A stretch of DNA of 64,000 bases, from positions 6,835 through 70,834 of the forward strand of contig JAEOTQ010000168.1 in NCBI GenBank assembly GCA_016839785.1, written 5' to 3'. Origin of the DNA: Candidatus Hodarchaeota archaeon. Lineage in GTDB: Archaea > Asgardarchaeota > Heimdallarchaeia > Hodarchaeales > Hodarchaeaceae. Both the position numbers and the translations under genes were made by a program. The notes below the pieces were generated by a model, which had not been told where the DNA came from, did not search any database, and saw nothing but the letters and a program-made list of their open reading frames with translations. Below are positions 2,971 through 18,130 of this stretch, piece by piece (the stretch's first letter is position 1; the number at the start of each line of letters is the position of its first letter).

Positions 2971-3741
2971 TTGAGTCAATCAAATGGAAATTCTTTCAGC
3001 TACTTCCACAAGCTAGTAGACGTTAAATTAAAGTCCCCAACAGTTGTTATCCAAGGATTACCTGGTATGGGGCTCATTGGAAAGATCGCGGCTAATTTTT
3101 TAATCGATCAATATGATGGAATTGAAATAGCACGTGTTTATAGTTCATTTTTCCCTCCTGTTGTCCAAATTGACAACGAACAAGGAGTGGGTCAACTAGC
3201 CCGAATGGAAATTTATGCAATCACAAAAACCTCTCCAAACTTATTAATATTAACAGGAGATGCTCAACCCCACGATATTGGTATTATTCAAGTATTAAAC
3301 GAAGTACTGGATTTCGTAATAAATCTAAAAGCCGAGACGGTCGTGTGTTTAGGTGGATTGAGAGCATTGGAAGAAGGTCCAGAAGTGGCTGCATTCGGAT
3401 ACAACAAGGAAACTATGAAATGGTTAGAGGAGTATGACATCACTCCATTAAAAGGAGGAGAAATAACGGGAGCAGTTGGAGTTTTCTCCGCATTAGCCGC
3501 TGAAAAAGGTTTACGAAGTTTTGGTTTACTTGGAAAATTAACATTAGTTGGTACTGATCCATTAGCAAGTAAAAATCTCCTGAAACGATTAGCAAAACTC
3601 TTTTCTCTTGATTATAAGTATGATGATTTGGATGGTATCATCGAGGAAGCAGTCCAGAAAAATGACTTACTCCATCAAGCGGAAGAAGCAGAAAGCGGAT
3701 CAGATGATGACAGCTCTCGTGGACCCAGTTATTATATTTAA
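2971..3741 (+). CDS. PAC2 (DUF75) proteasome-assembly-chaperone family protein
   Basis: 256 aa with a TTG start. The N-terminal VVIQGLPGMGLIGKIAANFLID motif is typical of the PAC2 family. Acidic C-terminal tail. Confidence 0.6.
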   Translation: MSQSNGNSFSYFHKLVDVKLKSPTVVIQGLPGMGLIGKIAANFLIDQYDGIEIARVYSSFFPPVVQIDNEQGVGQLARMEIYAITKTSPNLLILTGDAQPHDIGIIQVLNEVLDFVINLKAETVVCLGGLRALEEGPEVAAFGYNKETMKWLEEYDITPLKGGEITGAVGVFSALAAEKGLRSFGLLGKLTLVGTDPLASKNLLKRLAKLFSLDYKYDDLDGIIEEAVQKNDLLHQAEEAESGSDDDSSRGPSYYI

Positions 3742-3742
3742 T

Positions 3743-5020
3743 TCAATGGGAAAATAGGTTATTCTCTTCAGCAAATTGAATTCTTCTTCGAAATAGCTCA
3801 GTGATGGCAAAGGATACTACAGTCAATGCTAGCATAAATAGTAATCCACCAACTGGCGATTGGAACGTATCTAAAAGTGCACCGAAGATCGTGGGGGAAA
3901 TAGAGCTAATAATAAGCCCTAGTGAAAAAACAAGTGAATAGAAAAAGGTTCTATCACCCGCGGGGACTAAATCAGCCTGTAATGCTTGTAATGTTCCTCC
4001 CGCTAGATAAAATCCAATAGCAAATAGAGAAAATCCGAGAATAATCACTAGAATTTCGGGAAAACCCAGAGTAATTACAATAAGCCCAGTAATTGCCAGA
4101 CTAGAAATGAGTGCCGAAATTAGTATTATTCTGATTCTCCCACGTGGACCCAAGCGATCAGAATTGATTGCTCCATAGATATCAGAAATAGATCCTAAAA
4201 GGAGAATAAAACTGGTTATAACTCCTGCATTGAAAGCTTCGACATGATAAAAATTCTTCAATAAAGTGGTCGTAAAATAGCTGATAGAGCGATAAACTCC
4301 ACCTCGTAATGCACTTATTAAAATAATTATAGCTAAACTCGTTATAATCCACTTTCGGTGGGGAGAGGAGCGAATGGAAGTACTGCTCTCCAACTCACTG
4401 ACAGTTTTTTCTTTTTCTCTTGATTTCAATAGGGATTCAAAGTTTCCAATCAAATTTTCAAGTAAAATCCAAGAAATGAGACTAAATACAAGAAGAATGC
4501 AAAACACACCAAGGAGGAAAAAGGTCGATCTCCAAGTGAAAAAAAAGATAGCTAAAGTTAAGGTGCTAATGGGACTAACAGCGGTTCCAATCACACCTGC
4601 TGCATGGTTGATAGCCATGGCTTTTCCCCGATTGCGATCTGAAAAAGAATTTGCGCAGACCCCTAATCCCACAGGATGATAAGTTGTACAGCCAAGACCA
4701 AGAATAATATTACCAAAAAACAATCCCAAGAAATCATTGGCCATCGAAATCCAAAAACTTGAGACAGCAAATAGAAAGATCCCCATAAGGACTATGAAAA
4801 ATCCTTTAGCAGCCTTTTTTCCTAAATATCCAATAAGTGGAGAGGTCAAAGCCATGATTAATGACGGAAGAGACCCTAATATTCCCATCTCAAGATAACT
4901 GAGAGGAATGTCCGTAATAATCAGAATGAGCAAAGCTGGAAAGGCATACAACAACACATGATGAATAAAGTGGGATATTGACATAAATCCGAGCAATTGG
5001 TGGCGAATATTCAATGACAA
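3743..5020 (-). CDS. MFS-type transporter
   Basis: 425 aa, strongly hydrophobic with about 12 predicted TM segments and a central hydrophilic loop. TGA stop. Confidence 0.7.
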   Translation of the reverse strand: MSLNIRHQLLGFMSISHFIHHVLLYAFPALLILIITDIPLSYLEMGILGSLPSLIMALTSPLIGYLGKKAAKGFFIVLMGIFLFAVSSFWISMANDFLGLFFGNIILGLGCTTYHPVGLGVCANSFSDRNRGKAMAINHAAGVIGTAVSPISTLTLAIFFFTWRSTFFLLGVFCILLVFSLISWILLENLIGNFESLLKSREKEKTVSELESSTSIRSSPHRKWIITSLAIIILISALRGGVYRSISYFTTTLLKNFYHVEAFNAGVITSFILLLGSISDIYGAINSDRLGPRGRIRIILISALISSLAITGLIVITLGFPEILVIILGFSLFAIGFYLAGGTLQALQADLVPAGDRTFFYSLVFSLGLIISSISPTIFGALLDTFQSPVGGLLFMLALTVVSFAITELFRRRIQFAEENNLFSH

Positions 5021-5191
5021 ATCAGGGACCTCTTGGATAAGAAGGAATAAAGGGATGTAGTGTAGGAGAAATTCAACCTCGTTTTCTGAATTTGACTAGT
5101 TTAATACCCATGCTCGGAAACGAAATTACGTCTCATAAGATGAGCGAATTTTTTAATTATTTGGGTATGTATCAGGAGAATTTCGGATGAA

Positions 5192-6511
5192 TTATCCTTC
5201 AGGAATAGGATTAATTGGCTTAAGAGGTTCATCCACAAAATAAAAAGCTAATCCTCCAAGTACTCGCAAAACCATCACTACTAAAACAAGAGAGTAGATA
5301 GTTGGCCACTTACCTAAAACTGGAATCAGTAGTTCTGTCACAACACCCATAGAAAAAGAACCCAGGAAAGTAACGATACCCATAATTAGCTGATAAGCTC
5401 CTACGTATCTGCCTTTAGATCCATCAGGAGCAGAATCAATGATATATGCTGTCGTGGTTACAAAATACAGTCCATACCCGATTCCACCAATAAAATTCCC
5501 AATAGCAAGTTCAACCCAATTTCTAGAAAAAAAGAGCACTAATGGTATCAGAAACATAATTCTACGGCCATTGAAACCAATCTTCTTACCGTATTTGTCA
5601 ATCAATTTGCCGCCAATTGATAGTGAAAAGATTTGACATGCCATATGGACAGCCCAGAGAAAACTATATTGACTGGGAGTAGTATAACGTTCACGAATAA
5701 ATCCGAAAATAGGCCATCCAGTTGACATGCTGAAGTCCATACAGGCACTAATTAGCACAAAACGAGTAAAAGTAGGATTCTCTCGAAAAGGAGCTAATAT
5801 GCTTCGAAAGGAAAATCTAGTATGCTTTTGTGTTGGCCTACCGTTAGATGGAGAGTGTGAATGTACCTCGAGATCAGAATTACCATTTGGATTGGTTTCT
5901 CGCAACCAGAACCAGGAAATAAAGCCGGCGAGAAGAAATCCTAAGGCACCAATACGATAAATCAGCATATACTGGGTCGTATAATCTGTGGAAAGGAATG
6001 GAATGATCCACCCCGAAATTAAAAAGACCACCATAGTGAAAATAACGGTTATAGTAGTAATACGACCAATGTAAGATCCTCTAGTACTTTCATGAGAAGT
6101 ATCACCTAAAAATGCTATCCAGGAAGGGGTAAAAATACTAAATGCTAAGGAATAAATGATCATGGCGACCAGTAAGATTAGAGGATCTGTGATCATAGGA
6201 AATAAAAAGCTCATAATGGCTGAAATAAAGAGCCCGATAACTAAAAATGGTTTTCTACCATATTTATCACTTAGTCGACCAAAGGGGAGTTGAACCGCTA
6301 ATTGAATAAGGTTTCTCATGCTAGTAATGATTGATAGAAGAATAGGAGAAGCACTAATAAATACGGCATAAATTTGGGAATAAGTGGCAACTATAAAATG
6401 ACCCGTGTCTTTTCCAATAGCTATCCCATATATGGTGCTTCCTTTGTTCTTAATACATGGTTCCTCCTGGGTTATAAGGTCTAAAGGAGGCTTAATGTCA
6501 GAATTAGTCAC
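5192..6511 (-). CDS. MFS-type transporter
   Basis: 439 aa. MFS motif-A-like FGRLSDKYGRKP and GGKLIDKYGKK in the two halves. Multi-TM profile. Confidence 0.75.
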   Translation of the reverse strand: MTNSDIKPPLDLITQEEPCIKNKGSTIYGIAIGKDTGHFIVATYSQIYAVFISASPILLSIITSMRNLIQLAVQLPFGRLSDKYGRKPFLVIGLFISAIMSFLFPMITDPLILLVAMIIYSLAFSIFTPSWIAFLGDTSHESTRGSYIGRITTITVIFTMVVFLISGWIIPFLSTDYTTQYMLIYRIGALGFLLAGFISWFWLRETNPNGNSDLEVHSHSPSNGRPTQKHTRFSFRSILAPFRENPTFTRFVLISACMDFSMSTGWPIFGFIRERYTTPSQYSFLWAVHMACQIFSLSIGGKLIDKYGKKIGFNGRRIMFLIPLVLFFSRNWVELAIGNFIGGIGYGLYFVTTTAYIIDSAPDGSKGRYVGAYQLIMGIVTFLGSFSMGVVTELLIPVLGKWPTIYSLVLVVMVLRVLGGLAFYFVDEPLKPINPIPEG

Positions 6512-6617: not shown

Positions 6618-8159
6618 CTAACTTTTCTTCTTTCGATGGAGTACCAGTAGTCCAAGGGTACATGAAATAATAAGAACCTGAAAACTTGGAGTAGAAGCTG
6701 TGGTAATGACAATATCAATTTCTCCAGAGAGTGGCCCTTCACCGATAGCGTTTTTTGCGCTAATAGCATAGAAAAATGAATTATCAGGAGTTGAAGGATC
6801 GGTATACTCTGAGACCACACCAAGAGTTGTGAGTAGACTCAAAGACCCTGATTCAGTCCCACGATAAATAAGATAATTAGTAATCGAAGAACCAGCATCA
6901 GTTGCAGGAGGAACCCACGTTAACTTGACTCCATTCGCCTCAAGGGAGATATTAATATTCAGTGGTGCACTTGGAGGATTTAGCTGGTAATGATAGGCCC
7001 AGGTCTCATTGAGATAGGTAGTAGGTGCACCCAGTATCCTTCCGCCGAAAAGAATCATTTTATCAGCAGAATAATCATACACCAGTGAGGAATGCGATGT
7101 GGCATGAGTTGGGGAATTCATATCGGTCCAGGTGAGAGTATTGTAATCAAAAGCCCAAGTATCAACATAGTCTGTTGGTTTTCCTCCAACAGCTTCTGTT
7201 CCACCAAATAAGATAATTCTATCAGATTCATTATCATAGTCCATTGCAGTCACCCAACGTGGGGTAGGTGCTTTAGTCGTAATGATTTGTGTCCAAGTAT
7301 CCGTATTGTAGTCATACGCCCATGTTTCATTCTTAAAGCGGTTAGCTAAAGGTTCAAAACCACCAGTCGAGCCACCAAAAAGAATTGATTTATCTGATTC
7401 AATATCATAACCAAATCCATTATCTGCCACCTTAGAAGGTTTAGTAACAGGATTCATTTGCTCCCAAGTATTTGTATTATAATCGTACGCCCATGTATCA
7501 TCAAAAAATGGTGCATTAGTAATGGAAAGATCCCGAGTATAACCTCCGTAAAGGATCACCCGATCAGATTCGGTATCATATACCATACTGCAAGCTAATC
7601 GAGGAGAAGGCGCAGTACTAGGTGACATATTTGTCCAGGTATTGGTATTCGTATCATATGCCCAGGTTTCAGGAGGGGCCTCTGTATATGTACCTCCACC
7701 GACTGCACTAACTGCTCCACCAAAGAGAATTATACGATCAGATTCAGCATCATATGCAAGACCAGGATTGGACCGACCTATAGGTGAAATGGCTGGAGTT
7801 ACATTTGTCCAGGATGCGGTCGTAAAATCAAAGGTCCAGGTATCAGTATAGTATACAAAATCTTCTCCAGAGATAATTTCTGGGAATCTTCCACTAAAAA
7901 GGATGGTTTTTGCAGACTCAATATCATAAGTCATCAGCTCATTACCTGTACGACTCCAAGGCGCACATGAAGGGTGTAATTGCACCCAATTCCCAATAGA
8001 TTCTTCAACCGTACTAGTTTCAAAAATAGTTTGGGTGATAACAACTTGTCCTTGAAAAGATGGAAAAAAAACAAGGAAAGAGATAACCAGTACACAAAAA
8101 ATATAATAGAATTGCAACTTCATTGGTTCTTTCGTATTAGAAAGAAAGGACATTAGCAT
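6618..8159 (-). CDS. Secreted Kelch-repeat protein with an FN3-like domain and a C-terminal TM anchor
   Basis: N-terminal signal/TM segment. About 6-7 repeats of the pattern ESDRIILFGG...TWAYDYNTNTW. An FN3-like segment (PSAPLNINISLEANGVKLTWVPP). C-terminal hydrophobic helix followed by HRKKKS. TAG stop. Confidence 0.75.
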   Translation of the reverse strand: MLMSFLSNTKEPMKLQFYYIFCVLVISFLVFFPSFQGQVVITQTIFETSTVEESIGNWVQLHPSCAPWSRTGNELMTYDIESAKTILFSGRFPEIISGEDFVYYTDTWTFDFTTASWTNVTPAISPIGRSNPGLAYDAESDRIILFGGAVSAVGGGTYTEAPPETWAYDTNTNTWTNMSPSTAPSPRLACSMVYDTESDRVILYGGYTRDLSITNAPFFDDTWAYDYNTNTWEQMNPVTKPSKVADNGFGYDIESDKSILFGGSTGGFEPLANRFKNETWAYDYNTDTWTQIITTKAPTPRWVTAMDYDNESDRIILFGGTEAVGGKPTDYVDTWAFDYNTLTWTDMNSPTHATSHSSLVYDYSADKMILFGGRILGAPTTYLNETWAYHYQLNPPSAPLNINISLEANGVKLTWVPPATDAGSSITNYLIYRGTESGSLSLLTTLGVVSEYTDPSTPDNSFFYAISAKNAIGEGPLSGEIDIVITTASTPSFQVLIISCTLGLLVLHRKKKS

Positions 8160-8390
8160 TCATCTCCCATACTCAAATTTCAAAATCTCGGAATTACATT
8201 CTAGTATGAAAAATAGGTATAAAAAGGATACTTTCTCTAGTAAAAAACGTAATAAATTACAAAAAGCACAAGAAAATACAGAGAAAAACAATTTCCTTAA
8301 TAAAGTCAAATGTAAAAGTACAAAAAAGGTGGGAAAGGGAAAATGGGGCACCCGGCGCAGCAGAAACAGTATATAAGTGTTGCGAAAAGG

Positions 8391-8398
8391 TTTATAAA
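8391..8398 (+). promoter_or_regulatory. TATA-like box (TTTATAAA) preceded by a purine-rich BRE-like CGAAAAGG
   Basis: Sequence GCGAAAAGGTTTATAAAGG lies about 220 nt upstream of the tfb ATG. It could drive a long leader or a separate small RNA. Confidence 0.3.
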
Positions 8399-8544
8399 GG
8401 AGGAAAAAGGCGTTGTAGTTAGTGGTGATTGAGGTCAGGCGCTCACCCTAGGTGGCAATTAATTTTCCCCGCGGTTTTAGCAAGAAAGAGAATTCTCTCG
8501 CAGTTAGTTCTCGCAGGAAAGTGAGAGAACAATATCGTAAAGAG

Positions 8545-8551
8545 TTTAAAA
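8545..8551 (+). promoter_or_regulatory. TATA-like box (TTTAAAA), candidate tfb promoter
   Basis: AAAGAGTTTAAAATCCC lies about 64 nt upstream of the tfb ATG. Confidence 0.35.
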
Positions 8552-8614
8552 TCCCAATACGGAAGGCTAACGCCCCGACCAGGCAATCACAAGTTTGAGA
8601 AGGAACGCTCAGGA

Positions 8615-9583
8615 ATGGCATCTATGAAAGAAGCAAAAGCAAAACCACAGAAAAAAGGCCAGGCAGAAGACGAGGAAGAAATCCTCGAATGTAAAAACTG
8701 TGGATCGACAGATATCGTAGCCGATGAAAATCGAGGCGAATTAATCTGTGAAAAATGTGGTTATGTGCTGGAAACACGACTGATAGACGAAGGCCCCGAA
8801 TGGCGAGCATTTAATAGTGAAGAACGCGATAAACGCAGTCGTGTCGGATCGCCAAGTACATTTTCAGTCCATGATAAGGGATTATCCACTATTATAGGAT
8901 ATGAAAACCGCGATACATTCGGTAATAAACTCACCGCCTCACGACGAGCACAAATCTACCGCTTACGGAAATGGCAGATACGAACCCGAGTGCATAGCTC
9001 GATGGATCGAAATCTAGCATTCGCCATGTCAGAAATGGATCGATTGGCCTCACAACTCGGAATACCACGAAATGTGAAAGAGACATCCGCAATTATATAT
9101 CGGAAAGCAATCGAAAAACGACTCGTTCGCGGACGCTCAATAGAAGCGATGGTCGCCGCAACAATCTACGCATCAGCACGCGTACGTCGAGTCCCACGAA
9201 CACTTGATGAAATCGCCAAAGAATCACGGATAACCAAAAAAGAACTTGGCCGGTGCTATCGACTCTTATTACGCGAACTATACCTAAATATCCCATTAGC
9301 GAGCCCAATCGATTATCTCGTCCGCTTTGGAACAGAACTAAGACTTTCTGGCGTATGTCAACGAAAAGCTGCCGAAATATTAAAACGCGCAAAAGCTGGC
9401 GGATTGACGGCAGGGAAAGACCCAACGGGCCTAGCGGCTGCAGCAATCTATATCAGCGGAATAATCAACGGGGAACGAAGGACACAACGGGAAATTTCAG
9501 AAGTGGCCCACGTTACCGAAGTTACTGTGCGAAATCGCTACAAAGAGCTTGTACGTAAGCTAAGTATCGAGATTACCGTTTAG
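8615..9583 (+). CDS. tfb: Transcription initiation factor TFB (TFIIB homolog)
   Basis: 322 aa. N-terminal zinc ribbon CKNCGS...CEKCG. B-reader/linker region and two cyclin-fold repeats (e.g. RGRSIEAMVAATIYASAR, GKDPTGLAAAAIYISG). TAG stop. Confidence 0.95.
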   Translation: MASMKEAKAKPQKKGQAEDEEEILECKNCGSTDIVADENRGELICEKCGYVLETRLIDEGPEWRAFNSEERDKRSRVGSPSTFSVHDKGLSTIIGYENRDTFGNKLTASRRAQIYRLRKWQIRTRVHSSMDRNLAFAMSEMDRLASQLGIPRNVKETSAIIYRKAIEKRLVRGRSIEAMVAATIYASARVRRVPRTLDEIAKESRITKKELGRCYRLLLRELYLNIPLASPIDYLVRFGTELRLSGVCQRKAAEILKRAKAGGLTAGKDPTGLAAAAIYISGIINGERRTQREISEVAHVTEVTVRNRYKELVRKLSIEITV

Positions 9584-9595
9584 AAGGTATCTCCT
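9531..9595 (+). repeat. Direct repeat copy A (65 bp): the functional 3' end of tfb (last 17 codons, stop, and 12 nt)
   Basis: GAAATCGCTACAAAGAGCTTGTACGTAAGCTAAGTATCGAGATTACCGTTTAGAAGGTATCTCCT recurs at 15511 and 16556 in the same orientation. Confidence 0.95.
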
Positions 9596-9599
9596 CCCC

Positions 9600-9634
9600 T
9601 TTTTCCTCCTTTCCTTTTTTTAACCCCTTTTTTT
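9600..9634 (+). terminator. T-tract terminator region downstream of tfb
   Basis: Three oligo-T runs (TTTTT, TTTTTTT, TTTTTTT) lie within 35 nt after the tfb stop. This is the archaeal intrinsic termination signal type. Confidence 0.4.
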
Positions 9635-9755
9635 GCATGAAGACGTTATTTCTGATTTGAAAACAGACTCTTTCTTCTAAATTGTTACTTTTGTCTGAAA
9701 TCTGGGTGTTTATAACTGCAATCTGTGTAAACTAGAAAATTGGGAAGTAAATGTA

Positions 9756-10286
9756 ATGCCAGATAATGGAATGCCCTCTAAAATTACTGAAAGTAGAGTA
9801 TCAGTAGATTTTGACGAGTTTACAGCTGAGGATCTGATATTTGATCCCCACCCCTCAATAGATGACCGATCCTTTGTTCAAGAGGTGATTGTTCAACATC
9901 AACAAAATGATGATGGAACTTTCTCTTGGATAACCCCTCTTCCAATTAATGATTCTAGACAAGTTAAATTCTTTTTGGATAAAATTTTAAGTCAGAAATC
10001 ACATCCTCGTTTATTTAGAGGAACAGTTGAGTTTTATATATTCTTTAAGTACGCTATTGATATTGATAAATCATTGGATGAGATTATCCTCAAACTTGAA
10101 GAGCTTACCAACTTGGTTCAGACTTTACAGGAATGGATTAGAAGTAAACAAGCTCAGCTTCTTTGTGATGATCATGGTTCCGGAATATTAAGTTTTTTGG
10201 TGACCAACGAAGTTTTTTCAGAAGCTTGCACCAAATTTTCTTGGACAATAAACGAAAATGAGGTAGTAGTTCTAGCTCAGAAATAA
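9756..10286 (+). CDS. Hypothetical acidic protein (E1 cargo)
   Basis: 176-aa ORF with a TATA-like GTTTATAA about 45 nt upstream. I recognise no motif. Confidence 0.5.
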   Translation: MPDNGMPSKITESRVSVDFDEFTAEDLIFDPHPSIDDRSFVQEVIVQHQQNDDGTFSWITPLPINDSRQVKFFLDKILSQKSHPRLFRGTVEFYIFFKYAIDIDKSLDEIILKLEELTNLVQTLQEWIRSKQAQLLCDDHGSGILSFLVTNEVFSEACTKFSWTINENEVVVLAQK

Positions 10287-10353
10287 GATCTAAATAATGC
10301 CTTTGTATTTAGGTTTTTATAAATAAAAAAAAAAGAGGGGAATGGGAATGACC

Positions 10354-12567
10354 TCACTTACCAATGAAGTACCCACGCAAATCCTGTCGCTTATAGAGCT
10401 GCTTTTTAGAGCATCCTATAACTCGGGAGACATTCAATGCACTTGGTTTGATCCCTTGTGCGTTGAGTTCCTCAATGGCTTCTTCAACCATTGAAGTAGT
10501 GATATTCCTCCGTTTGTAGGAGTGTGCGTGAGAACGATCATTATACTTCTCATTGAACACTTGAATCAAGTGCTCAGAAGTTGTACAATGAGGGACATAC
10601 CAGCGTTTAGGCCGGTAAGAGGTTCCATCGTCCTTGAGTTCCTCATGAATGAGGTTCATGGTACGATGGAGAGTTCCCAACCGTCTATTTAGGATATATG
10701 GTTGGATCCCTTCAAGATATGGTCGAAGAGCGGGATGAACGCGCAGCTCATCCGTAGAGTAGATATTACCATCCTCCAAGATCTGAAGGATAGTGGTGCA
10801 TACATGAACCGATAACTGTTGGTCTAATTTCCTCTCTGCTGAGAAGGAATTAGCAACAGCTAAGAGTTTAGAATGCTTATGCCAGAGACCCAATAGTGGA
10901 TCACGGACATAAAGAGGTGCTACATCATAAAGGAAGGCTTGTATACCCTCTTGACGTAACTGAAAACTATGGACCCCATCACGTTTACTTCGATACCAAT
11001 CGGAATGATCATATCCCAACTGATCGCATAAACGCATAATGAGGTGAAGGATTCCCAATTCTTTCTGTGTAATAGATATATCCGCACCAATACATCCATC
11101 ATCTACAATGAAAGCGGCGAGGAATTGTACTTTCCAATCTCGATAACGAGCTGGTAAATTGAGTACAAAGTGAAGAAAGGAAGGGGTCCGAAGGTCACGA
11201 AATGTGATCCCTCGAATAGTTCCCAGCATAGCATAAACTAATGCTTTGGGATATATCATCCTGTCATAATCTATAGTAGGATCACGACTCAGATGAGAGA
11301 GAAGAGTTCGCATGGGACCCTGATTTTCGGGGAGTTGAATCCACCGTAGATCAGGATTTTTGCGAAAATGGACATTGCCGTCACCGGCAATGTGAGAGAG
11401 TATTCGCCAGGCATAGATATCCATGACGAATGGGAATGTGAGGTACTCCAGGTCACCTCGTTTTGAAAATCGAACCGCTCGCGCGTTTCGCTCAACCTGG
11501 TTAAGGTCCATCTCTGCATACAGGCAGAGACGTTCGAGATTCGGTACCACGATCGATTGATCTGGGGAATCCCGGATATTGGATAAGATTGTCCTACTTA
11601 TCCCAATCTCTCGACTCAATGTCGACAGATTGATTCCTTTCAACATGGTTGAAAGGGTAATCCAATCCTTTTTGCCCAACAGGACATAGAGATTGGTAAA
11701 CTCCCAAAGAGACACCTCCTGGAAGGTGTACTCTTCAGGGACGACCGGCCATGTGGCCTCTGGGAGGCCTGTTATGACACGGTCAGGAAGTGGGGTCTTT
11801 GCCCCAGCTTTCCTAGAGGGAGGGGTGTGTTGTGACATCGTCATTTCACCACGTGTAGAGTGTCTACCTGCCTCTTCCATGTCACCATGGACGAGGACCA
11901 TGCCCGAGGGCTTCTCAGAAAAGACATGTCTTGCGACACCTCTTCTCTGAGGAGATACGACCTTGAAGGGGTCGTGTCCCTGTGGTAGTTGGGTATGGCT
12001 TTGAGTTAACACTCTTCTGGTGACTGACACACTCTCTCTGGCTAGTTCCTGACCATGTGTGTAAGTCGGATTTCTCTCTTTGTGATGTATACGCTGTTGT
12101 TGTGGATGTTGTTCTTCTTCCGTATTCCCTTCATTGGATGTTTTTGTTTCCCTACAAAAGAATTGCCTGTCTTGTGACCCGATCCAACTTGGAGAGTCGA
12201 CGAGGCCAGCATTTTGTTGATGGATAAGTTGTGCTGGTTGGTGTTGGACGTGATTTAGTGATTGCCTCTGCGATGTTCGCGGGCTTAGAGCACTAGGGTC
12301 CGTACCGTGAATCAGGGTTTTTTGACTTCGTCCTTGGGCTTTGTCCTCCTGATTCTGTTCGGGATACAGGGCTAGTTTCGTCACGGGCTGAGGTAGATGG
12401 GTGTCTCCAAGTATCGATGACCAAGAACCATTCCTCTTTTCGCCTCGTGTGTTTTTAGCCAACATCGGTTGTTCACCGTGTTTTTTTTTCCACATGCCTT
12501 TTTTGTGCAAGTGGTAGGCAAGTACTGGCTTCCAGCACTTTCTACATATGGTTGTGAATTTTAACAT
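10354..12567 (-). CDS. Large element protein: Cys/His-rich N-terminus, ~280-aa low-complexity region, HTH, double LAGLIDADG-like core, C-terminal HTH
   Basis: 737 aa. Q/H/S/T/R/P-rich segment at roughly residues 30-300. HTH-like LSTLSREIGISRTILSNIRD. LAGLIDADG-like motifs ILSHIAGDGNV and FLAAFIVDDGCIG about 95 aa apart. C-terminal HTH-like LNVSRVIGCSKKQLYKRQ. Confidence 0.6.
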   Translation of the reverse strand: MLKFTTICRKCWKPVLAYHLHKKGMWKKKHGEQPMLAKNTRGEKRNGSWSSILGDTHLPQPVTKLALYPEQNQEDKAQGRSQKTLIHGTDPSALSPRTSQRQSLNHVQHQPAQLIHQQNAGLVDSPSWIGSQDRQFFCRETKTSNEGNTEEEQHPQQQRIHHKERNPTYTHGQELARESVSVTRRVLTQSHTQLPQGHDPFKVVSPQRRGVARHVFSEKPSGMVLVHGDMEEAGRHSTRGEMTMSQHTPPSRKAGAKTPLPDRVITGLPEATWPVVPEEYTFQEVSLWEFTNLYVLLGKKDWITLSTMLKGINLSTLSREIGISRTILSNIRDSPDQSIVVPNLERLCLYAEMDLNQVERNARAVRFSKRGDLEYLTFPFVMDIYAWRILSHIAGDGNVHFRKNPDLRWIQLPENQGPMRTLLSHLSRDPTIDYDRMIYPKALVYAMLGTIRGITFRDLRTPSFLHFVLNLPARYRDWKVQFLAAFIVDDGCIGADISITQKELGILHLIMRLCDQLGYDHSDWYRSKRDGVHSFQLRQEGIQAFLYDVAPLYVRDPLLGLWHKHSKLLAVANSFSAERKLDQQLSVHVCTTILQILEDGNIYSTDELRVHPALRPYLEGIQPYILNRRLGTLHRTMNLIHEELKDDGTSYRPKRWYVPHCTTSEHLIQVFNEKYNDRSHAHSYKRRNITTSMVEEAIEELNAQGIKPSALNVSRVIGCSKKQLYKRQDLRGYFIGK

Positions 12568-12768
12568 GAATGGTCGTTCACAATTCCACTTTCCATATTG
12601 CCTGTTGGTACTAAATTAAGAACCATCTAGGATTGTTCCCACCCCTTTTATACTTGTAAAAATTGGTTGATATTCCATTTTGCTCCTCGAAATTTTATGG
12701 ACTCACGTACTTGGATTTTCGAATATAAATATCATCTACCCTTATACATTATTGATGAGTGAAAAGCA

Positions 12769-13581
12769 ATGAGTGTACACACCTCTTCGGTTTCTTCGAA
12801 TAAATCTCAATTCCCTTTGGATGACGCTTTTTCAGAATGTGCCAAGATTTCCATCCCCGGGGATTCCTCTTTTCCCGAACGTCGTCCAATTCCTACTTAT
12901 TTAAAGAGTTTAGATTATAAATGGAGAGGAGGATGGTTTTGGCAATGGCCAGTATTAATTGCTGGTCCAAAAGGGGCAGGAAAAAGCCTTTTTCTTGCAC
13001 AATTGATTGCCTCTACTCTCTTAAGCTGTCGAAAGCCTTGGCAGGTTCTCTATTACGACTTTAATCTAGATTATCAAGCCCAACGCATTCTACGAGTGTT
13101 AAAAATGCGCTCTCAAACCGCTACTCCTGCCTCGTATCTTAGTCGAATTGACAAACTCACACTCCCCTCTAAGATTTGGAATGATTATTTCTTTTATCCT
13201 ATAGTGAAGCATTCTATGCTTGCTACCTTAGTTCTTGATGGCTGGAATACTTTTTTCCCTTCTGTCGATGGATTGAGAGGTTTTGCAGAGATTGCTAGAA
13301 AAAAACAAATGGGCTTACTGGTGACTATGCGTGGTGATCTTGATGAGCTGCTTAAATCTACCCCCTGGACCTCCATTCCCTACTTCATGTATATCACCAA
13401 ACAGAAACATAAACAGCACAGGATTCGTCTGTGGCAAAATTCCCCTACTAGTCAGATCTATGATCGTGTAGTGGAATTTAAAGGGTATTTTATAGAATTT
13501 CGATCAAAAAAGAAAGAAAAACAAGCTTCGAAGCCCCGCTTACTTACAGTTTATGGTGCTTCCCCTTCCACGAGGGATTAA
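12769..13581 (+). CDS. RecA-superfamily (KaiC/RepA/DnaB-C-like) P-loop ATPase
   Basis: 270 aa. Walker A VLIAGPKGAGKSLF and Walker B-like ATLVLDGW. TATA-like ATATAAATA lies ~40 nt upstream. The 3' end contains an A_AAA_AAG heptamer. Confidence 0.65.
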   Translation: MSVHTSSVSSNKSQFPLDDAFSECAKISIPGDSSFPERRPIPTYLKSLDYKWRGGWFWQWPVLIAGPKGAGKSLFLAQLIASTLLSCRKPWQVLYYDFNLDYQAQRILRVLKMRSQTATPASYLSRIDKLTLPSKIWNDYFFYPIVKHSMLATLVLDGWNTFFPSVDGLRGFAEIARKKQMGLLVTMRGDLDELLKSTPWTSIPYFMYITKQKHKQHRIRLWQNSPTSQIYDRVVEFKGYFIEFRSKKKEKQASKPRLLTVYGASPSTRD

Positions 13582-13766
13582 CAATATATTCAGAAGCTTT
13601 TCGTCTTTCTGCAGCGAGTTCGTCATTTTCTGACCACGATTTACCCTCTGAAATTCGTGCTCACTTTCCGTTTCCCTCTTTTCGTCCTGGTCAGGCACAG
13701 GTCTTAGCTTTAATCGCTGCTAATCCACGGATAGCTATCAATGCGTATACAGGTTTTGGCAAATCG

Positions 13767-15416
13767 GTGATTGCTTTTGCTGCGCTTTGGGAGCAAATGA
13801 AAAGCGGTGATTATCAGTTATGGTGTTTTTCCAAGACCAAAGCACAGCTTCGTTCGGTTTTTCTCAAGACCCTGAAACAATTCTATAGTCATCCTCCCGC
13901 TGATCAACTTACTCTTCTTCCTCTGATCGCCAGTAAAGATCTTTGCCCTTTATCTCACGAGGCGGAATGTTTTCATTGTTCCCAGAAAAAACGAACTCGT
14001 TTTTCATCACTTAAGACTTTAAAGGAGGTTCTTCCCCATCTTACTCTTGCTCAATGCCCGAATACTTTTGATGGTTTTCGACAGCTTTTATCTCCTTATG
14101 GTTGTCCCGCCCAGGTTATTAGACGGTTGCTCCCCCAAATAAACATCATTTTATTACCTCAGGGATATCTCGAATCTCAGCAGTTACGCTTTTCATTAAC
14201 TAAGTTCTTTTGGAATGCTTATTATTTTGGGTTTCGTTGGAGTCACCGTTTCGCCATTATCGATGAAACACATAATTTCGGACCCACAATTGAAGCAGAG
14301 GTTAATAGGGATCATCTCGATCGTGTTCAATCCATAGGAGCCTTTCCCGTTGTGGAAACTCTGCAGAACTTGTGTCAAAAACGTTTAGGTAGAGTCACTC
14401 GGCCTCTTACCACGGATCGTACCCAGGCAGTCAAAATCGACTCTTTTCTTCAGCAAAAAGGTATTCGTCATTCTCTTTCACCTGAGGATCTTGCTGCTTT
14501 CCATGCCGTCCGAACCTTCCTTCTTCGTAAAGGTCAATATTGGGTTCATACTAAGGAGGGATTAGTCCAGTTCGATCCTTTTCCAAAGCAAATCTTTGAG
14601 TATGTCAATCGACACTTTTCCCGAACGATTCTATTTTCTGCTACTTTTCAGTATCTCAAATACTATTCCCATTATTATGGTCTGAAACAACCTTGGAATG
14701 TGTATCATTTACATAATGTAAAAACCCCTAAAGCTCGAATCCGTCAGTTGTTGATAACGGCTCTAATAAGTCCCCAGATTAGTAGTTCTCAGCGCAATCG
14801 GACATCAACTTTGCTTAAATGGTGCGCTCAAACCATTAAAGATATTGCTTTAGAAATTCCAGACCATACTTGGGTTTTTGTCCCCTCGTATGAATTCTTG
14901 GAGGAACTTTATCCGCTTGTTCAAGACCAATTGTCTGAGACCATGTCTCTTTTCCATGAACCCAGAAAAGGGCAGATTCCCTTCCTCTCTGAGTTAATCT
15001 CTGGTCCTCCGAGTGTGGTTATAGCGGTTTATGGGGGAAAATTCAGTGAGGGTGTGGAGGTTCGTCATCCCAAAACAGGTCGAAGTCGGGTACGGATGGT
15101 TATCTTAGTTGGATTACCCTTTCCAGCCCCAACACCTGAATATAGATTGCTATTTAATCTCTATCTTCGTTGCTATCGACATCTTCACTTTGTTAAGTGG
15201 ACGTTAATTGAACGTCATCTCTATACACAGGTTCGACAATGTCTTGGACGGGCCATTCGCTCTGAAGCTGATCAAGCCACAGGTCTGATTCTTGACTATC
15301 GAGCGTTTTATAATCGTCATCATCTCCCCAACTTGCGTATGTTTCGGTATTTTGATGATTTAAAATCATTTCTTCATCGTCGTTTTCGCCAATTGAAAGA
15401 ATATGACAATTTTTGA
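13767..15416 (+). CDS. XPD/Rad3/DinG-family Fe-S helicase. ORF-track start shown; homology continues upstream to at least ~13650.
   Basis: Cys cluster CPLSHEAECFHC...CPNTF...GCPAQ. DExH-like IIDETHNF. Motif VI QCLGRAIRSEADQATGLILD. The motif Q/I region FPFPSFRPGQ...AYTGFGKS lies in the same frame upstream of the GTG at 13767, with no ATG/GTG/TTG before it. Confidence 0.75.
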   Translation: MIAFAALWEQMKSGDYQLWCFSKTKAQLRSVFLKTLKQFYSHPPADQLTLLPLIASKDLCPLSHEAECFHCSQKKRTRFSSLKTLKEVLPHLTLAQCPNTFDGFRQLLSPYGCPAQVIRRLLPQINIILLPQGYLESQQLRFSLTKFFWNAYYFGFRWSHRFAIIDETHNFGPTIEAEVNRDHLDRVQSIGAFPVVETLQNLCQKRLGRVTRPLTTDRTQAVKIDSFLQQKGIRHSLSPEDLAAFHAVRTFLLRKGQYWVHTKEGLVQFDPFPKQIFEYVNRHFSRTILFSATFQYLKYYSHYYGLKQPWNVYHLHNVKTPKARIRQLLITALISPQISSSQRNRTSTLLKWCAQTIKDIALEIPDHTWVFVPSYEFLEELYPLVQDQLSETMSLFHEPRKGQIPFLSELISGPPSVVIAVYGGKFSEGVEVRHPKTGRSRVRMVILVGLPFPAPTPEYRLLFNLYLRCYRHLHFVKWTLIERHLYTQVRQCLGRAIRSEADQATGLILDYRAFYNRHHLPNLRMFRYFDDLKSFLHRRFRQLKEYDNF

Positions 15417-15510
15417 GATACTTTGGGGAGGGAGCTGTCAAAAATCTACTCGTCTATTGAAGTACAAAGTTTCAACTTTTAATTTCTTGGATTGTTTCGC
15501 AAAAATTTAC

Positions 15511-15575
15511 GAAATCGCTACAAAGAGCTTGTGCGCAAGCTGAGTATCGAGATTACCGTGTAGACGGTATCTCCT
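15511..15575 (+). repeat. Direct repeat copy B (65 bp, displaced tfb 3' end)
   Basis: 5 mismatches to copy A. The 4 inside the coding part are all third-position synonymous, so it still spells RNRYKELVRKLSIEITV*. Confidence 0.95.
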
Positions 15576-16461
15576 TTATTTTTTTCTTTTTTCGGCGAGT
15601 GGAGAGACTGTGTGTACAAATAATTAGTGCTATTGTGATTAATAAGTGATCTATAGAAGTAGTAAGATTTATTGAGGGAGTTTCTGTTGGTTTTTCTATT
15701 TTGATGTCCCAATGATAAATCATTCCATTCCCATTTAAGTCCAGAAAATGAGTAAATAGAGTATAACTACCATTAGGGTAATTTTGACTAGCTATGTGAA
15801 TTTCAAAAGTGTACGCAACTGTCTTAGGGCCTGTGTACTCTAAATTTGTTTTTAATTCTATATCAGATTCAAAAAAAGTTTCTGTAGATTGTTTTAAAGT
15901 CACGGAGGCTTCTTTAATGTCATTATTTGTCTCAACAGATCCATTAATTGTAATATTTCCCATCCAGATTTGATTATCTTTGATTCCACTAAATGTTGCT
16001 TCTGGATATTCTTCTAATGAGGCATCATAGACAATAGTTCTTAATTTTACATTACAATAGAGATCTCCGTCTCCATACGCATCTTCTGAAGCTATTGTGA
16101 AATCTTTTTCTTCTTCCACACTCATGCCCACAATTGCTTCTTTGAACTTGAGGAGATAACTTGCACTTGCATCTGGATACAATACGAGGATATTTCCAGG
16201 CACTATATCATTAGTAGCAAGGTATACATTGTTCAAAGAGTTAATGGTGTCTGAATGTACGGAATTTTCTTCTCTCGTAAAAGAAAAGTCTACATTCACT
16301 ATATCTCCCCAGTTTGCAGTTACTTCCATACCCCTAGCAGTATATCCAATCACCCAAATATTAAATAGAACGATAACAACTAAGATTATCTTCCTTGACT
16401 TCAAGTTGTTTCCCACCTTCATCACTATCTTATTTTTGTTAAACTGTTCTAATAAAACCAT
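15553..16461 (-). CDS. Membrane-anchored extracellular protein (E2 cargo)
   Basis: 302 aa with an N-terminal TM/signal segment (IILVVIVLFNIWVIGYTARG) and a C-terminal TM followed by RRKKKK. Its last codons and stop lie inside repeat copy B, on the opposite strand. Confidence 0.55.
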   Translation of the reverse strand: MVLLEQFNKNKIVMKVGNNLKSRKIILVVIVLFNIWVIGYTARGMEVTANWGDIVNVDFSFTREENSVHSDTINSLNNVYLATNDIVPGNILVLYPDASASYLLKFKEAIVGMSVEEEKDFTIASEDAYGDGDLYCNVKLRTIVYDASLEEYPEATFSGIKDNQIWMGNITINGSVETNNDIKEASVTLKQSTETFFESDIELKTNLEYTGPKTVAYTFEIHIASQNYPNGSYTLFTHFLDLNGNGMIYHWDIKIEKPTETPSINLTTSIDHLLITIALIICTHSLSTRRKKKKIKEIPSTR

Positions 16462-16555
16462 TCATCAATCATTCTACCTAGATTCAAATGCTATTTTCTG
16501 AATATTAGATATAAAGTGAAATATTAGATTATCAACATTACTAAGATAACCATGT

Positions 16556-16620
16556 GAAATCGCTACAAAGAGCTTGTACGCAAGCTTAGTACCGAGATCA
16601 CCGTATAGACGGGATCTCCT
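16556..16620 (+). repeat. Direct repeat copy C (65 bp, displaced tfb 3' end)
   Basis: 7 mismatches to copy A. In the coding part, 4 are synonymous and 1 is non-synonymous (Ile to Thr). It is preceded by TGA instead of CGA. Confidence 0.9.
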
Positions 16621-16917
16621 ATCTTTTTTCTTTTAATGTTTCACGAATTCGGGTACCAATAAATCTAATTTCATATTATTACATAGAGCGTTATCTGCTA
16701 TTTTTTTTGCGTATCCATGGAAATTAATGAGATTTATTTTAATCTTTATGGAGCTAGAATAAATTCTGAGGTTTTTAATCCCTCTAACTGTTCTAAAGGG
16801 AATGATCCCCTCCCCTTGCGTGATATCTGGTGCAGGTATCCTCTCTCTTATTAACTAATTAATTAGTATTTTTCCTATCTTTATGACTAAGCGAATATAA
16901 ACAAAATGTGATTTTAT

Positions 16918-17538
16918 ATGTTCATTTCAGAAATTTTTTCAAACCGAATTGGAAATCGGGAAGCCCTTGGATTTTTTCTTTTTATTGGGCCTCTCCAATT
17001 TATTCTAAGTGTGTTGATTGCCGAAGGAATGGCTGAATCGTATGATTCAGGTCTTCATTATGTCAGTTCCTTGGGCGTGGGAGCAACGGCCAATCTTTTC
17101 AACACTTCAGTCCTTATCCTCGGAATTTGTATTTTATTAGGAACATACTTTTTTCATCTAGAATATCCAGAACGAATACCTACAGTGTTTTTACTACTCA
17201 CTGCCCTTTCTGCCGTTGGTGTGGGGGTATTTCCTGAGGATGCTCCTCCCTTTCATGGCATTTTTACAGGATTTGTATTTTTGTTTGCAGCGATCTTTTT
17301 AATTTCAATTATCAAGGTAAACCGATCTTTACCTCTTATTTCTCTCTCTATATTGGGAGGTGTGATTCTAATTGCAAGTCTTCTCTTCCTTCCCTATCTC
17401 GGTTTGGATGTTGAAGATCCCACAAAATTCCTAGGTTTTATGAAAGGTACATTAGAACGATTCATTATATATCCCACCCTATCAGGATTTCTTATTCTCA
17501 GTGGCTATCTCAGTAGAAGCACAGACACGAAAGTTTAG
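16918..17538 (+). CDS. DUF998-like integral membrane protein
   Basis: 206 aa with about 6 TM segments. The N-terminal pattern GFFLFIGPLQFILSVLIAEG resembles DUF998. TAG stop. Confidence 0.5.
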   Translation: MFISEIFSNRIGNREALGFFLFIGPLQFILSVLIAEGMAESYDSGLHYVSSLGVGATANLFNTSVLILGICILLGTYFFHLEYPERIPTVFLLLTALSAVGVGVFPEDAPPFHGIFTGFVFLFAAIFLISIIKVNRSLPLISLSILGGVILIASLLFLPYLGLDVEDPTKFLGFMKGTLERFIIYPTLSGFLILSGYLSRSTDTKV

Positions 17539-17659
17539 ACGTCTGGTGGCTATTTTTCTTTTTTTTGTTACATCTCGTTCTGAGATTTTATTATAAATCT
17601 CAAGATCGAAAGGAATTTTGCGAATTTCTGACTAACTTAGCAAACGAGATGAATTTATC

Positions 17660-18130
17660 TTGGATATCCTCATACGAGAATTAACAAAAGAAGATTTTGA
17701 TGGGATAAAAAGAATTTTTGCTGAATCGTTTAAGTATCATGAACAAATTGATTCAATATTTGCCTCTAGTGAAGGTGCGGATCAAATCTGGATAGATTAT
17801 ATTGACACGATTTACCAACAAGATGACATCCAAGTTTATATTGCGATATTAGATGACGATATTGTTGGTTACTGCGTTGGTCAAATTCTTGATAAACCAC
17901 CAGTATTTAAAATGAGGAGAATTGGACAAATCAATAATATTGCAGTCAAAGAGGGCCATAAACAACATGGGGTTGGACAATTATTATTTGAGAAAATAAA
18001 AGGATGGTTTGACACCCAAAATGTATGTCATATTGAACTGTCGGCTGCAACAAATAATCCTCAATCTTTAGCGTTTTGGAGCAAAATGGGGGGGAGAGAA
18101 TTCATGAAAACGATGATTATTACGATTTGA
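17660..18130 (+). CDS. GNAT-family N-acetyltransferase
   Basis: 156 aa with a TTG start. Acetyl-CoA-binding motif A: INNIAVKEGHKQHGVGQLLFEKIKGW. Confidence 0.8.
   Translation: MDILIRELTKEDFDGIKRIFAESFKYHEQIDSIFASSEGADQIWIDYIDTIYQQDDIQVYIAILDDDIVGYCVGQILDKPPVFKMRRIGQINNIAVKEGHKQHGVGQLLFEKIKGWFDTQNVCHIELSAATNNPQSLAFWSKMGGREFMKTMIITI

Follow-up and report, generated by a model that had tools for sequence, protein, structure and literature searches.

The DNA analysed here, called the window below, was a stretch of 64,000 nucleotides (nt) from a Candidatus Hodarchaeota archaeon (GTDB lineage Archaea; Asgardarchaeota; Heimdallarchaeia; Hodarchaeales; Hodarchaeaceae), taken from the forward strand of contig JAEOTQ010000168.1 (positions 6,835 to 70,834; GenBank assembly GCA_016839785.1) and numbered from its first letter. 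At 10354-12567 it carries a gene for a protein with a LAGLIDADG core and helix-turn-helix (HTH) segments, which lies together with cargo genes between repeated copies of the 3′ end of tfb, a gene for a paralogue of the TFIIB-type transcription factor B (TFB). A first-pass annotation, made by a model from the letters alone, had proposed a protein of 737 amino acids (aa) at this place as a candidate site-specific targeting enzyme; the uninterrupted open reading frame (ORF) of 737 codons was found as described, and its strand, which had not been given, is the minus strand. The parts of the gene and of its product are listed below; core positions are those of the AlphaFold2 (AF2) model.

10354..12567, minus strand: LAGLIDADG-HTH protein, full ORF (737 aa from the first ATG; 713 aa by the gene caller; about 703 aa from M35).
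12496..12546, minus strand: Cys/His-containing segment CRKCWKPVLAYHLHKKG (residues 8-24), not conserved.
11797..12465, minus strand: N-terminal tail (residues 35-257), read as translated, poor in hydrophobic residues and evolving at a near-neutral rate.
11488..11673, minus strand: XRE/Cro-type HTH (about residues 299-360), assigned by HTH_26, HTH_19 and HTH_3 family matches and by AF2 helices at core 50-111.
11569-11628, minus strand: LSTLSREIGISRTILSNIRD within the XRE-type HTH (residues 314-333).
10903..11478, minus strand: monomeric double-LAGLIDADG core (about residues 364-555), assigned by the two AF2 units and by Foldseek.
11371-11403, minus strand: motif 1 with D396 (GDG, invariant).
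11086-11124, minus strand: motif 2 with D490 (DDG, invariant).
10591..10884, minus strand: helical linker and winged-helix-like region (about residues 562-659; AF2 core 313-410).
10366..10497, minus strand: C-terminal HTH (about residues 691-734; AF2 helices at core 442-482), the part that survives as a stub at loci L022, L024 and L025.

The gene caller placed the start at M25, and the closest homologues begin at the equivalent of M35; at locus L001 the open frame was unable to extend farther upstream (homologous loci carry L numbers, genomes G numbers). All segments quoted in the first-pass annotation were located: CRKCWKPVLAYHLHKKG and LSTLSREIGISRTILSNIRD at the residues given above, motif 1 (ILSHIAGDGNV) at residues 389-399, motif 2 (FLAAFIVDDGCIG) at residues 482-494 and the C-terminal HTH-like segment (ALNVSRVIGCSKKQLYKR) at residues 710-727. 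The Cys and His residues of the first segment are present, but the segment does not stand as a conserved part of the protein; judged by the starts of the closest homologues it probably lies upstream of the true start, and a zinc module was rejected because the segment was not conserved in the alignment. As had been claimed, the most G+C-rich DNA of the window falls in this gene (0.51 over 600 nt at 11401-12300; the whole window averages 0.37), but the long low-complexity region comprises about 220-255 residues rather than 280 and is missing in many homologues.

The core (residues ~258-737) was modelled with AF2 by using an alignment of 29 sequences, in which the conserved part runs from LPPLPxRAI (residue ~258) to the C terminus; the model had a predicted local distance difference test score (pLDDT) of 88.8. 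It opens with an XRE-like HTH of five helices; two alpha-beta-beta-alpha-beta-beta-alpha units follow, then a helical linker with a winged-helix-like unit, and a C-terminal HTH of three helices comes last. The two motif helices (H135-145 and H224-241 of the core model) are each followed by the pattern of strands and helix of a LAGLIDADG unit. In a Foldseek search of the PDB the top matches were LAGLIDADG enzymes only, among them PI-PkoII (E 2.9e-6), PI-PfuI and the Tli VMA intein, all at probability 1.00, and dozens of I-DmoI chains (template modelling (TM) score ~0.6 over ~186 residues, probability 1.00); PI-SceI, I-SceI and I-AniI were also matched, and a library of viral structures returned inteins and phage LAGLIDADG endonucleases. 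The first-pass annotation had named a different fold as the outcome that would speak against it, and the structure search brought up none. The winged-helix-like assignment of residues ~562-659 is suggested by the model, and weak winged-HTH Pfam matches fall at the equivalent place in distant relatives.

Sequence searches with the window protein itself gave only a weak, sub-threshold match to HTH_26, left LAGLIDADG_3 unmatched and found nothing in NCBIfam, PADLOC, PHROGs or the PDB sequences (profile search to E 10 included). Over the 29 members of the family, Pfam matched LAGLIDADG_3 in 13 (best E 5.9e-6), HTH_26 in seven and HTH_19 in five. No Hint or intein Pfam domain was present in the window protein or in the family members searched.

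The aspartates D396 (GDG) and D490 (DDG) were invariant in the 29 homologues, which share 39-83% identity; they are 94 residues apart, close to the spacing of about 95 noted for the motifs beforehand, and were placed by AF2 at the C-terminal ends of the two motif helices. W409, Q411, P440, Y445 and Q501, on predicted beta-strands, were also invariant. Such conservation of acidic and beta-strand residues fits an active enzyme with a conserved target. Together, the model, the Foldseek matches and the alignment support a monomeric double-LAGLIDADG fold closest to I-DmoI and the archaeal intein endonucleases, with a predicted nuclease activity; the two-domain architecture with HTH modules that had been proposed from the motifs stands on the AF2 model, the I-DmoI match (TM ~0.6) and the invariant acidic residues, and both HTH-like segments on the family-level HTH_26 and HTH_19 matches and the AF2 and Foldseek assignments.

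Relatives were sought with residues 290-737 as the query against 5.8 billion proteins. The search returned 29 relatives of 39-83% identity, all from assemblies of Hodarchaeales or Heimdall-type Asgard archaea and none functionally named; an exhaustive profile search of 1.84 billion cluster representatives gave 28 at E < 1e-30 and a looser halo of archaeal proteins of ~380 aa that share the HTH or winged-helix and the LAGLIDADG part. Within one genus, eight of the 22 genomes carried the family; no member was found in the 61 other genomes of the class. In the literature searched, no paper was found on this family or on insertion at tfb in Asgard archaea. A short subfamily (L014; L015 9980-11209; L016 9950-11230) of ~410-430 aa and 38-41% identity lacks the C-terminal HTH and keeps GDG and DDG; in three genomes it occupies a conserved context upstream of an LPG_synthase_TM gene, not beside tfb, and it may be a domesticated paralogue or may have a second target. 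A distant relative of 383 aa in a Nanoarchaeia assembly (L026 6001-7152) is convergent on the 3′ end of an HhH-GPD glycosylase gene; a duplicated gene end was looked for beside it and none was found.

The N-terminal tail was compared by codon position. Between the window protein and an 82%-identical relative, residues 45-257 differed by 61/64/73 substitutions by codon position (aa identity 48%), and the core in the same test by 62/33/143; the nuclease core appears to be under purifying selection. In eight homologues the frame of the tail contained no stops, whereas the other five frames each held 6-17, and its hydrophobic content was 0.21-0.29 against ~0.35 in the core. The stop-free frame, the absence of codon-position bias and the low hydrophobicity indicate that the tail is translated, of disordered type and fast-evolving. 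It holds one conserved short motif, SPxRIGxxxEQxxxREVKTxEGE, at 12124-12195, and among homologues the N-terminal extension varies from none to ~270 codons. A structured RNA or a miscalled ORF was considered for the G+C-rich N-terminal region and rejected, an Rfam scan of 8000-18000 giving no match and the frame being stop-free in the eight homologues. Small ORFs of 126-174 aa at L007 (9115-9495) and L017 (8732-9256) carry the tail motif (SPRIG..EQVVPR) and a WEF-like stretch of the nuclease N terminus before they run into a different conserved C-terminal part; they adjoin a gene for an NYN (Zc3h12a-like) RNase, just upstream of the intact nuclease gene.

Around the nuclease gene, the following features were assigned in the window.

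8615..9583, plus strand: tfb (TFIIB-type transcription factor B paralogue), with TFIIB and Zn_Ribbon_TF matches; convergent with the nuclease gene.
9531..9594, plus strand: tfb-end copy 1, in use (last 17 codons and 11 nt).
9756..10286, plus strand: companion ORF of 176 aa, with homologues in four cassettes.
12769-13581, plus strand: KaiC/RecA-like P-loop ATPase, cargo of the first cassette (domain matches).
13767-15416, plus strand: XPD/DinG-like helicase, cargo of the first cassette (domain matches).
15511..15600, plus strand: tfb-end copy 2, displaced; distal boundary of the cassette that bears the nuclease gene.
16553..16634, plus strand: tfb-end copy 3, displaced; distal boundary of a second cassette of ~1 kb without a nuclease gene.

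The first cassette thus comprises the 176-aa ORF, the nuclease gene, the ATPase and the helicase, and the second a single membrane protein. The unit that recurs is the last 17 codons of tfb with the terminator region. Copies 1-3 encode RNRYKELVRKLSIEITV with a single replacement, in copy 3, their other differences being mostly synonymous; all three share the opening 22 nt of the repeat. Taken over all elements, the tfb-end repeats are 73-94% identical and ~65-95 nt long, with left and right limits that vary between elements and without a sharply defined identical core common to all. Compared with the empty site of genome G049 (described below), copies 1, 2 and 3 were 92, 92 and 88% identical in the coding part and 68, 84 and 74% identical in the downstream part. 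No integrase or recombinase was matched by Pfam in the four large ORFs of the first insert, in keeping with the earlier description of an element that lacks an integrase. The companion ORF gave an AF2 model of pLDDT 71 and no significant PDB fold match. The adjacent tfb is an extra paralogue found in only part of the genus, genomes without it carrying only TFBs of 39-49% identity; its protein is 95-99% identical between species whose RadB and PAC2 proteins are 61-93% identical. The best match of the helicase was a type IV CRISPR-associated DinG model (1.9e-33) and the ATPase weakly matched PADLOC mad8; the ATPase-helicase pair (12769-15416), which L001 and L017 also have, is a possible defence module.

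Homologues of more than ~43% identity were examined at ten loci with readable flanks (the window, L001, L002 (/L003), L004, L007, L017, L018, L019, L020 and L021). The nuclease gene was convergent with the 3′ end of tfb in all ten, the contig of L017 ending inside the tfb end. Cassettes were bounded by two to four tfb-end copies in the window, L001, L007, L018, L020, L022 and L025; an intact nuclease gene was always in the tfb-proximal cassette, and the displaced tfb ends of L007 and L020 encode 19-23 identical residues. The cargo varied by locus and included Piwi/Argonaute with a helicase, vapBC, an NYN RNase, an ABC transporter, a P-type ATPase and surface proteins. The nuclease gene was the only gene common to all cassettes examined, and no integrase or recombinase family was found in the gene lists of the ~ten cassettes of the window, L001, L002 and L017-L021.

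Within the assembly of the window itself (G000), a second nuclease copy of 53% identity was found at L007 (contig C49; 10388-12214 and 12355-12630). It adjoins a 97.8%-identical tfb fragment at the contig end, and two further displaced tfb ends follow at 5037-5105 and 719-784; L007 probably belongs to a co-binned related strain or species with another cassette set at the same locus. At L002, in another Hodarchaeales assembly, the cargo behind the nuclease gene includes a Piwi-domain (prokaryotic Argonaute) gene (3700-5136). Upstream of the nuclease gene there, the companion ORF has a homologue of 327 aa, flanked by an 88-nt direct repeat (6052-6139 and 7270-7357; 80% identity) with a TATAAAAG-like box.

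Of seven reference genomes with this tfb, three carry an intact nuclease gene, three carry a stub and one has neither. The last of these, G049 (L023), offers a clean empty site in which tfb is followed by a metallo-beta-lactamase-fold (MBL) gene and DUF998, with the downstream flank as in the window. In G054 (L022) the order was tfb, a 26-residue C-terminal nuclease stub, vapBC, a second tfb end and then MBL-DUF998, both repeat copies resembling the single copy of the empty site over ~95 nt. A nuclease stub is also present in G065 (L024). Of the four tfb ends in G061 (L025), the first three are each followed, within ~60-100 nt and on the opposite strand, by a different C-terminal stub; each cassette therefore seems to have arrived with its own nuclease gene and tfb end. 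The MBL gene that lies between the tfb site and DUF998 in G049 (L023 5813-6697) and G054 (L022 2067-3035) is absent from the window (16635-16917). Homing endonuclease genes pass through a cycle of invasion, decay, loss and re-invasion, and the distribution of intact, stub and empty sites matches that description by analogy. A place beside tfb was seen at all ten close loci, but not for the short subfamily or for a 48%-identical homologue of 493 aa (L012 455-1936), which lies beside MetE-like and SAM-synthetase genes with no tfb within 10 kb; linkage to tfb is therefore not absolute. Homologues confined to non-mobile contexts, the outcome that the first-pass annotation had set against its own proposal, were not what emerged, given the repeat-flanked cassettes, the empty site and the decayed copies.

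Trees were calculated for the nuclease cores and for the adjacent tfb nucleotides with the last 72 nt removed. In the nuclease tree, L020 fell with the window and L001 at a support of 98/95 and with L021 at one of 100/100; in the tfb tree it fell with L018, L002 and L019 (98/99). Approximately unbiased (AU) tests were run on the eight loci that have both genes, the clades being named after the trees had been seen: the nuclease data rejected the tfb clade (log-likelihood difference 92, p ~1e-102) and the tfb data rejected the nuclease clades (p = 0.015 and 0.024). The discordant histories of two adjacent genes indicate recombination between them, as insertion at the tfb end predicts.

The fold, the conservation of the catalytic residues, the linkage to tfb, the architecture of the cassettes, the empty and decayed sites and the phylogenetic discordance were all observed, and on their strength we consider it probable that the gene encodes a homing endonuclease that stands free of any intron or intein and brings with it cargo and a replacement tfb end; the nuclease probably drives cassette insertion at tfb. 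Cleavage, the target position and the repair route would be as follows. In genomes free of the element, the enzyme would recognise a long site at the 3′ end of the conserved tfb paralogue, or close to it, and cut there, and the break would be repaired by copying from an allele that bears the element. From tfb outward, the copied unit would consist of the replacement tfb end (the last ~17-23 codons and the terminator region), then the nuclease gene in the opposite orientation, and the cargo; the previous tfb end would be pushed distally and kept as a silent repeat. Repeated invasions would stack cassettes, the newest being nearest tfb with an intact nuclease gene, and older ones would lose theirs, down to a C-terminal stub. 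The nuclease core would be extended by the three accessory DNA-binding modules and the disordered N-terminal tail. A broader claim is offered tentatively, at somewhat less than an even chance: that homing endonucleases drive cassette stacking in Hodarchaeales, multi-gene cargo (Argonaute/Piwi, DinG-like helicase with ATPase, toxin-antitoxin pairs, transporters and surface proteins) being installed repeatedly behind a conserved TFB paralogue by a LAGLIDADG enzyme whose composite DNA-binding surface is long, with a fresh gene end each time, at an integron-like accretion site without a recombinase.

Several observations weigh against homing by this enzyme. The 22 nt shared by all three window copies offer no explanation of how occupied alleles would escape cutting or how a later element could invade them. 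Compared with G049, the distal copy is not cleanly native, and only the downstream part marks copy 1 as foreign. The distal cassettes of the window and of L001 hold no nuclease remnant. Direct repeats of 65-95 nt are also expected from site-specific or Campbell-type integration. The post-hoc choice of clades calls for caution with the weaker p-values of the AU tests; the strong one is not in doubt. At five loci the nuclease and the host proteins lose identity in parallel, and much of the nuclease history may be vertical.

Among the other explanations, a break-stimulated integration of the Campbell type is unlikely. A circle or other incoming DNA with one segment like the tfb end would recombine there in a single homologous crossover after a cut by the nuclease, and direct repeats would be left. 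The imperfect repeats of variable extent (~65-95 nt), whose limits differ between elements, would follow from such a crossover, as would the likeness of both G054 copies to the empty-site copy over ~95 nt, and the first cassette does encode a helicase and a RecA/KaiC-like ATPase. Set against this, no replication initiator or circular junction is known, cassettes of ~1 kb cannot be autonomous, and differences between copies that are only synonymous fit ends each of which once served as the real end of tfb. Those same repeats, being att-like and overlapping the 3′ end of a conserved gene, are also the usual signature of an integrative element, and several cassette genes, the 176-aa companion ORF included, have no annotation; a recombinase that went unrecognised, whether a novel cassette gene or one encoded elsewhere, might thus carry out classical site-specific integration with the LAGLIDADG-HTH protein as a regulator or accessory DNA-binding factor. 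This we regard as improbable, since no recombinase family was matched in the ~ten cassettes examined, the LAGLIDADG gene alone is common to all of them, every older cassette of L025 has its own nuclease stub beside its tfb-end copy, and the repeats, 73-94% identical, lack a sharp identical core common to all elements.

It is very improbable that the protein is a domesticated, non-mobile one like WhiA or HO, kept by tfb for a host function such as tfb regulation or defence while cassettes accumulate for unrelated reasons. In favour of this reading, its LAGLIDADG core with HTH recalls WhiA, purifying selection acts on the core, the nuclease diverges roughly as the hosts do, and the short subfamily has a conserved setting that does not include tfb. 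Both catalytic aspartates are invariant, however, unlike those of WhiA; of the seven reference genomes with this tfb, only three have the gene intact, three having a stub and one no copy; it lies inside a repeat-bounded cassette, not outside it; and its tree conflicts with that of the adjacent tfb. The homing endonuclease thus remains the reading that we prefer, and it is this reading that is compared with known systems below.

Known homing endonucleases travel in introns and inteins or are encoded by small free-standing genes of phages and organelles. The enzyme of the tfb element resembles I-DmoI, PI-PkoII and PI-PfuI, its best structural matches in the PDB, in having two alpha-beta-beta-alpha-beta-beta-alpha units in one chain; the acidic motif residues of I-DmoI, D21 and E117, are 96 apart. 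It differs from I-DmoI and the intein enzymes in that its gene stands free between tfb and the cargo, with no intron or intein around it, and in its extra DNA-binding domains; sequence identity to I-DmoI and the intein endonucleases is only 12-19%, with no PDB sequence match. WhiA, which has a C-terminal HTH, and HO, which has a zinc finger, are LAGLIDADG-derived host proteins that likewise fuse a monomeric LAGLIDADG scaffold to an additional DNA-binding module. WhiA has lost the catalytic acidic residues, whereas D396 and D490 are invariant here, and the gene is patchy, decaying and placed inside repeat-bounded inserts. The seg and mob enzymes of phage T4 are free-standing and of the GIY-YIG or HNH type. 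As with these and with genes of Haloferax, the nuclease gene lies outside a splicing element and is proposed to move neighbouring DNA by break repair. The glycosylation islands of Haloferax hold a free-standing LAGLIDADG gene, and island transfer by such an enzyme, through gene conversion, has been suggested as a possibility for archaea (PMC5867893). The Haloferax gene is of the LAGLIDADG_2 family, and its description includes neither a defined target gene nor gene-end replacement or a cassette array.

The mORFs of fungal mitochondria (Allomyces macrogynus atp6; Glomus atp6, atp9, cox2 and nad3) are LAGLIDADG or GIY-YIG ORFs that come with a replacement C-terminal part and displace the native end; synonymous sites account for most of the differences between the duplicated ends, the element is present in some close relatives and absent from others, and endonuclease activity was demonstrated biochemically for the Allomyces mORF (PMC3630166). 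The tfb element shares with them a free-standing endonuclease ORF at the 3′ end of a conserved gene (of LAGLIDADG type in most Glomus cases), the synonymous differences between the duplicated ends, the uneven presence among close relatives and, in our reading, the replacement C-terminal part and the displacement of the native end; four of the six mORF features listed for comparison were found in it. Unlike the mORFs, it is located in an archaeal cellular chromosome rather than an organelle. Its nuclease gene lies on the strand opposite to tfb and has a promoter region of its own, whereas an mORF is in phase with the host gene, and its enzyme has an XRE-type HTH, a winged-helix-like region, a C-terminal HTH and a disordered tail; it also brings several kilobases of cargo and forms arrays of up to three cassettes. 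In its insertion at a 3′ end with direct repeats and the tandem accretion of cassettes by one anchor gene it is like the integrative elements of tyrosine recombinases and the integrons; it differs from them in that no recombinase was matched in the cassettes examined and in that its repeats are imperfect copies of a coding end, each of which keeps the protein sequence.

The tfb element thus differs from all described cases in its archaeal chromosome, its opposite orientation, its three accessory DNA-binding modules with a tail, its multi-gene cargo and its stacking. A homing endonuclease that apparently brings in kilobases of cargo and builds cassette arrays without a recombinase would represent a different route to genomic islands. 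The enzyme itself may be a new meganuclease scaffold, with a recognition predicted to be extended by three modules of the helix-turn-helix type. Its target, a very conserved TFB paralogue found in only part of the genus, raises the question of the role of that paralogue. The host belongs to the Asgard order that is placed nearest to the eukaryotes, in which the means of gene exchange are almost unknown; if the reading is true, no such cassette-stacking system would have been described before from a cellular chromosome, and this one would belong to the archaeal lineage that stands closest to the eukaryotes.

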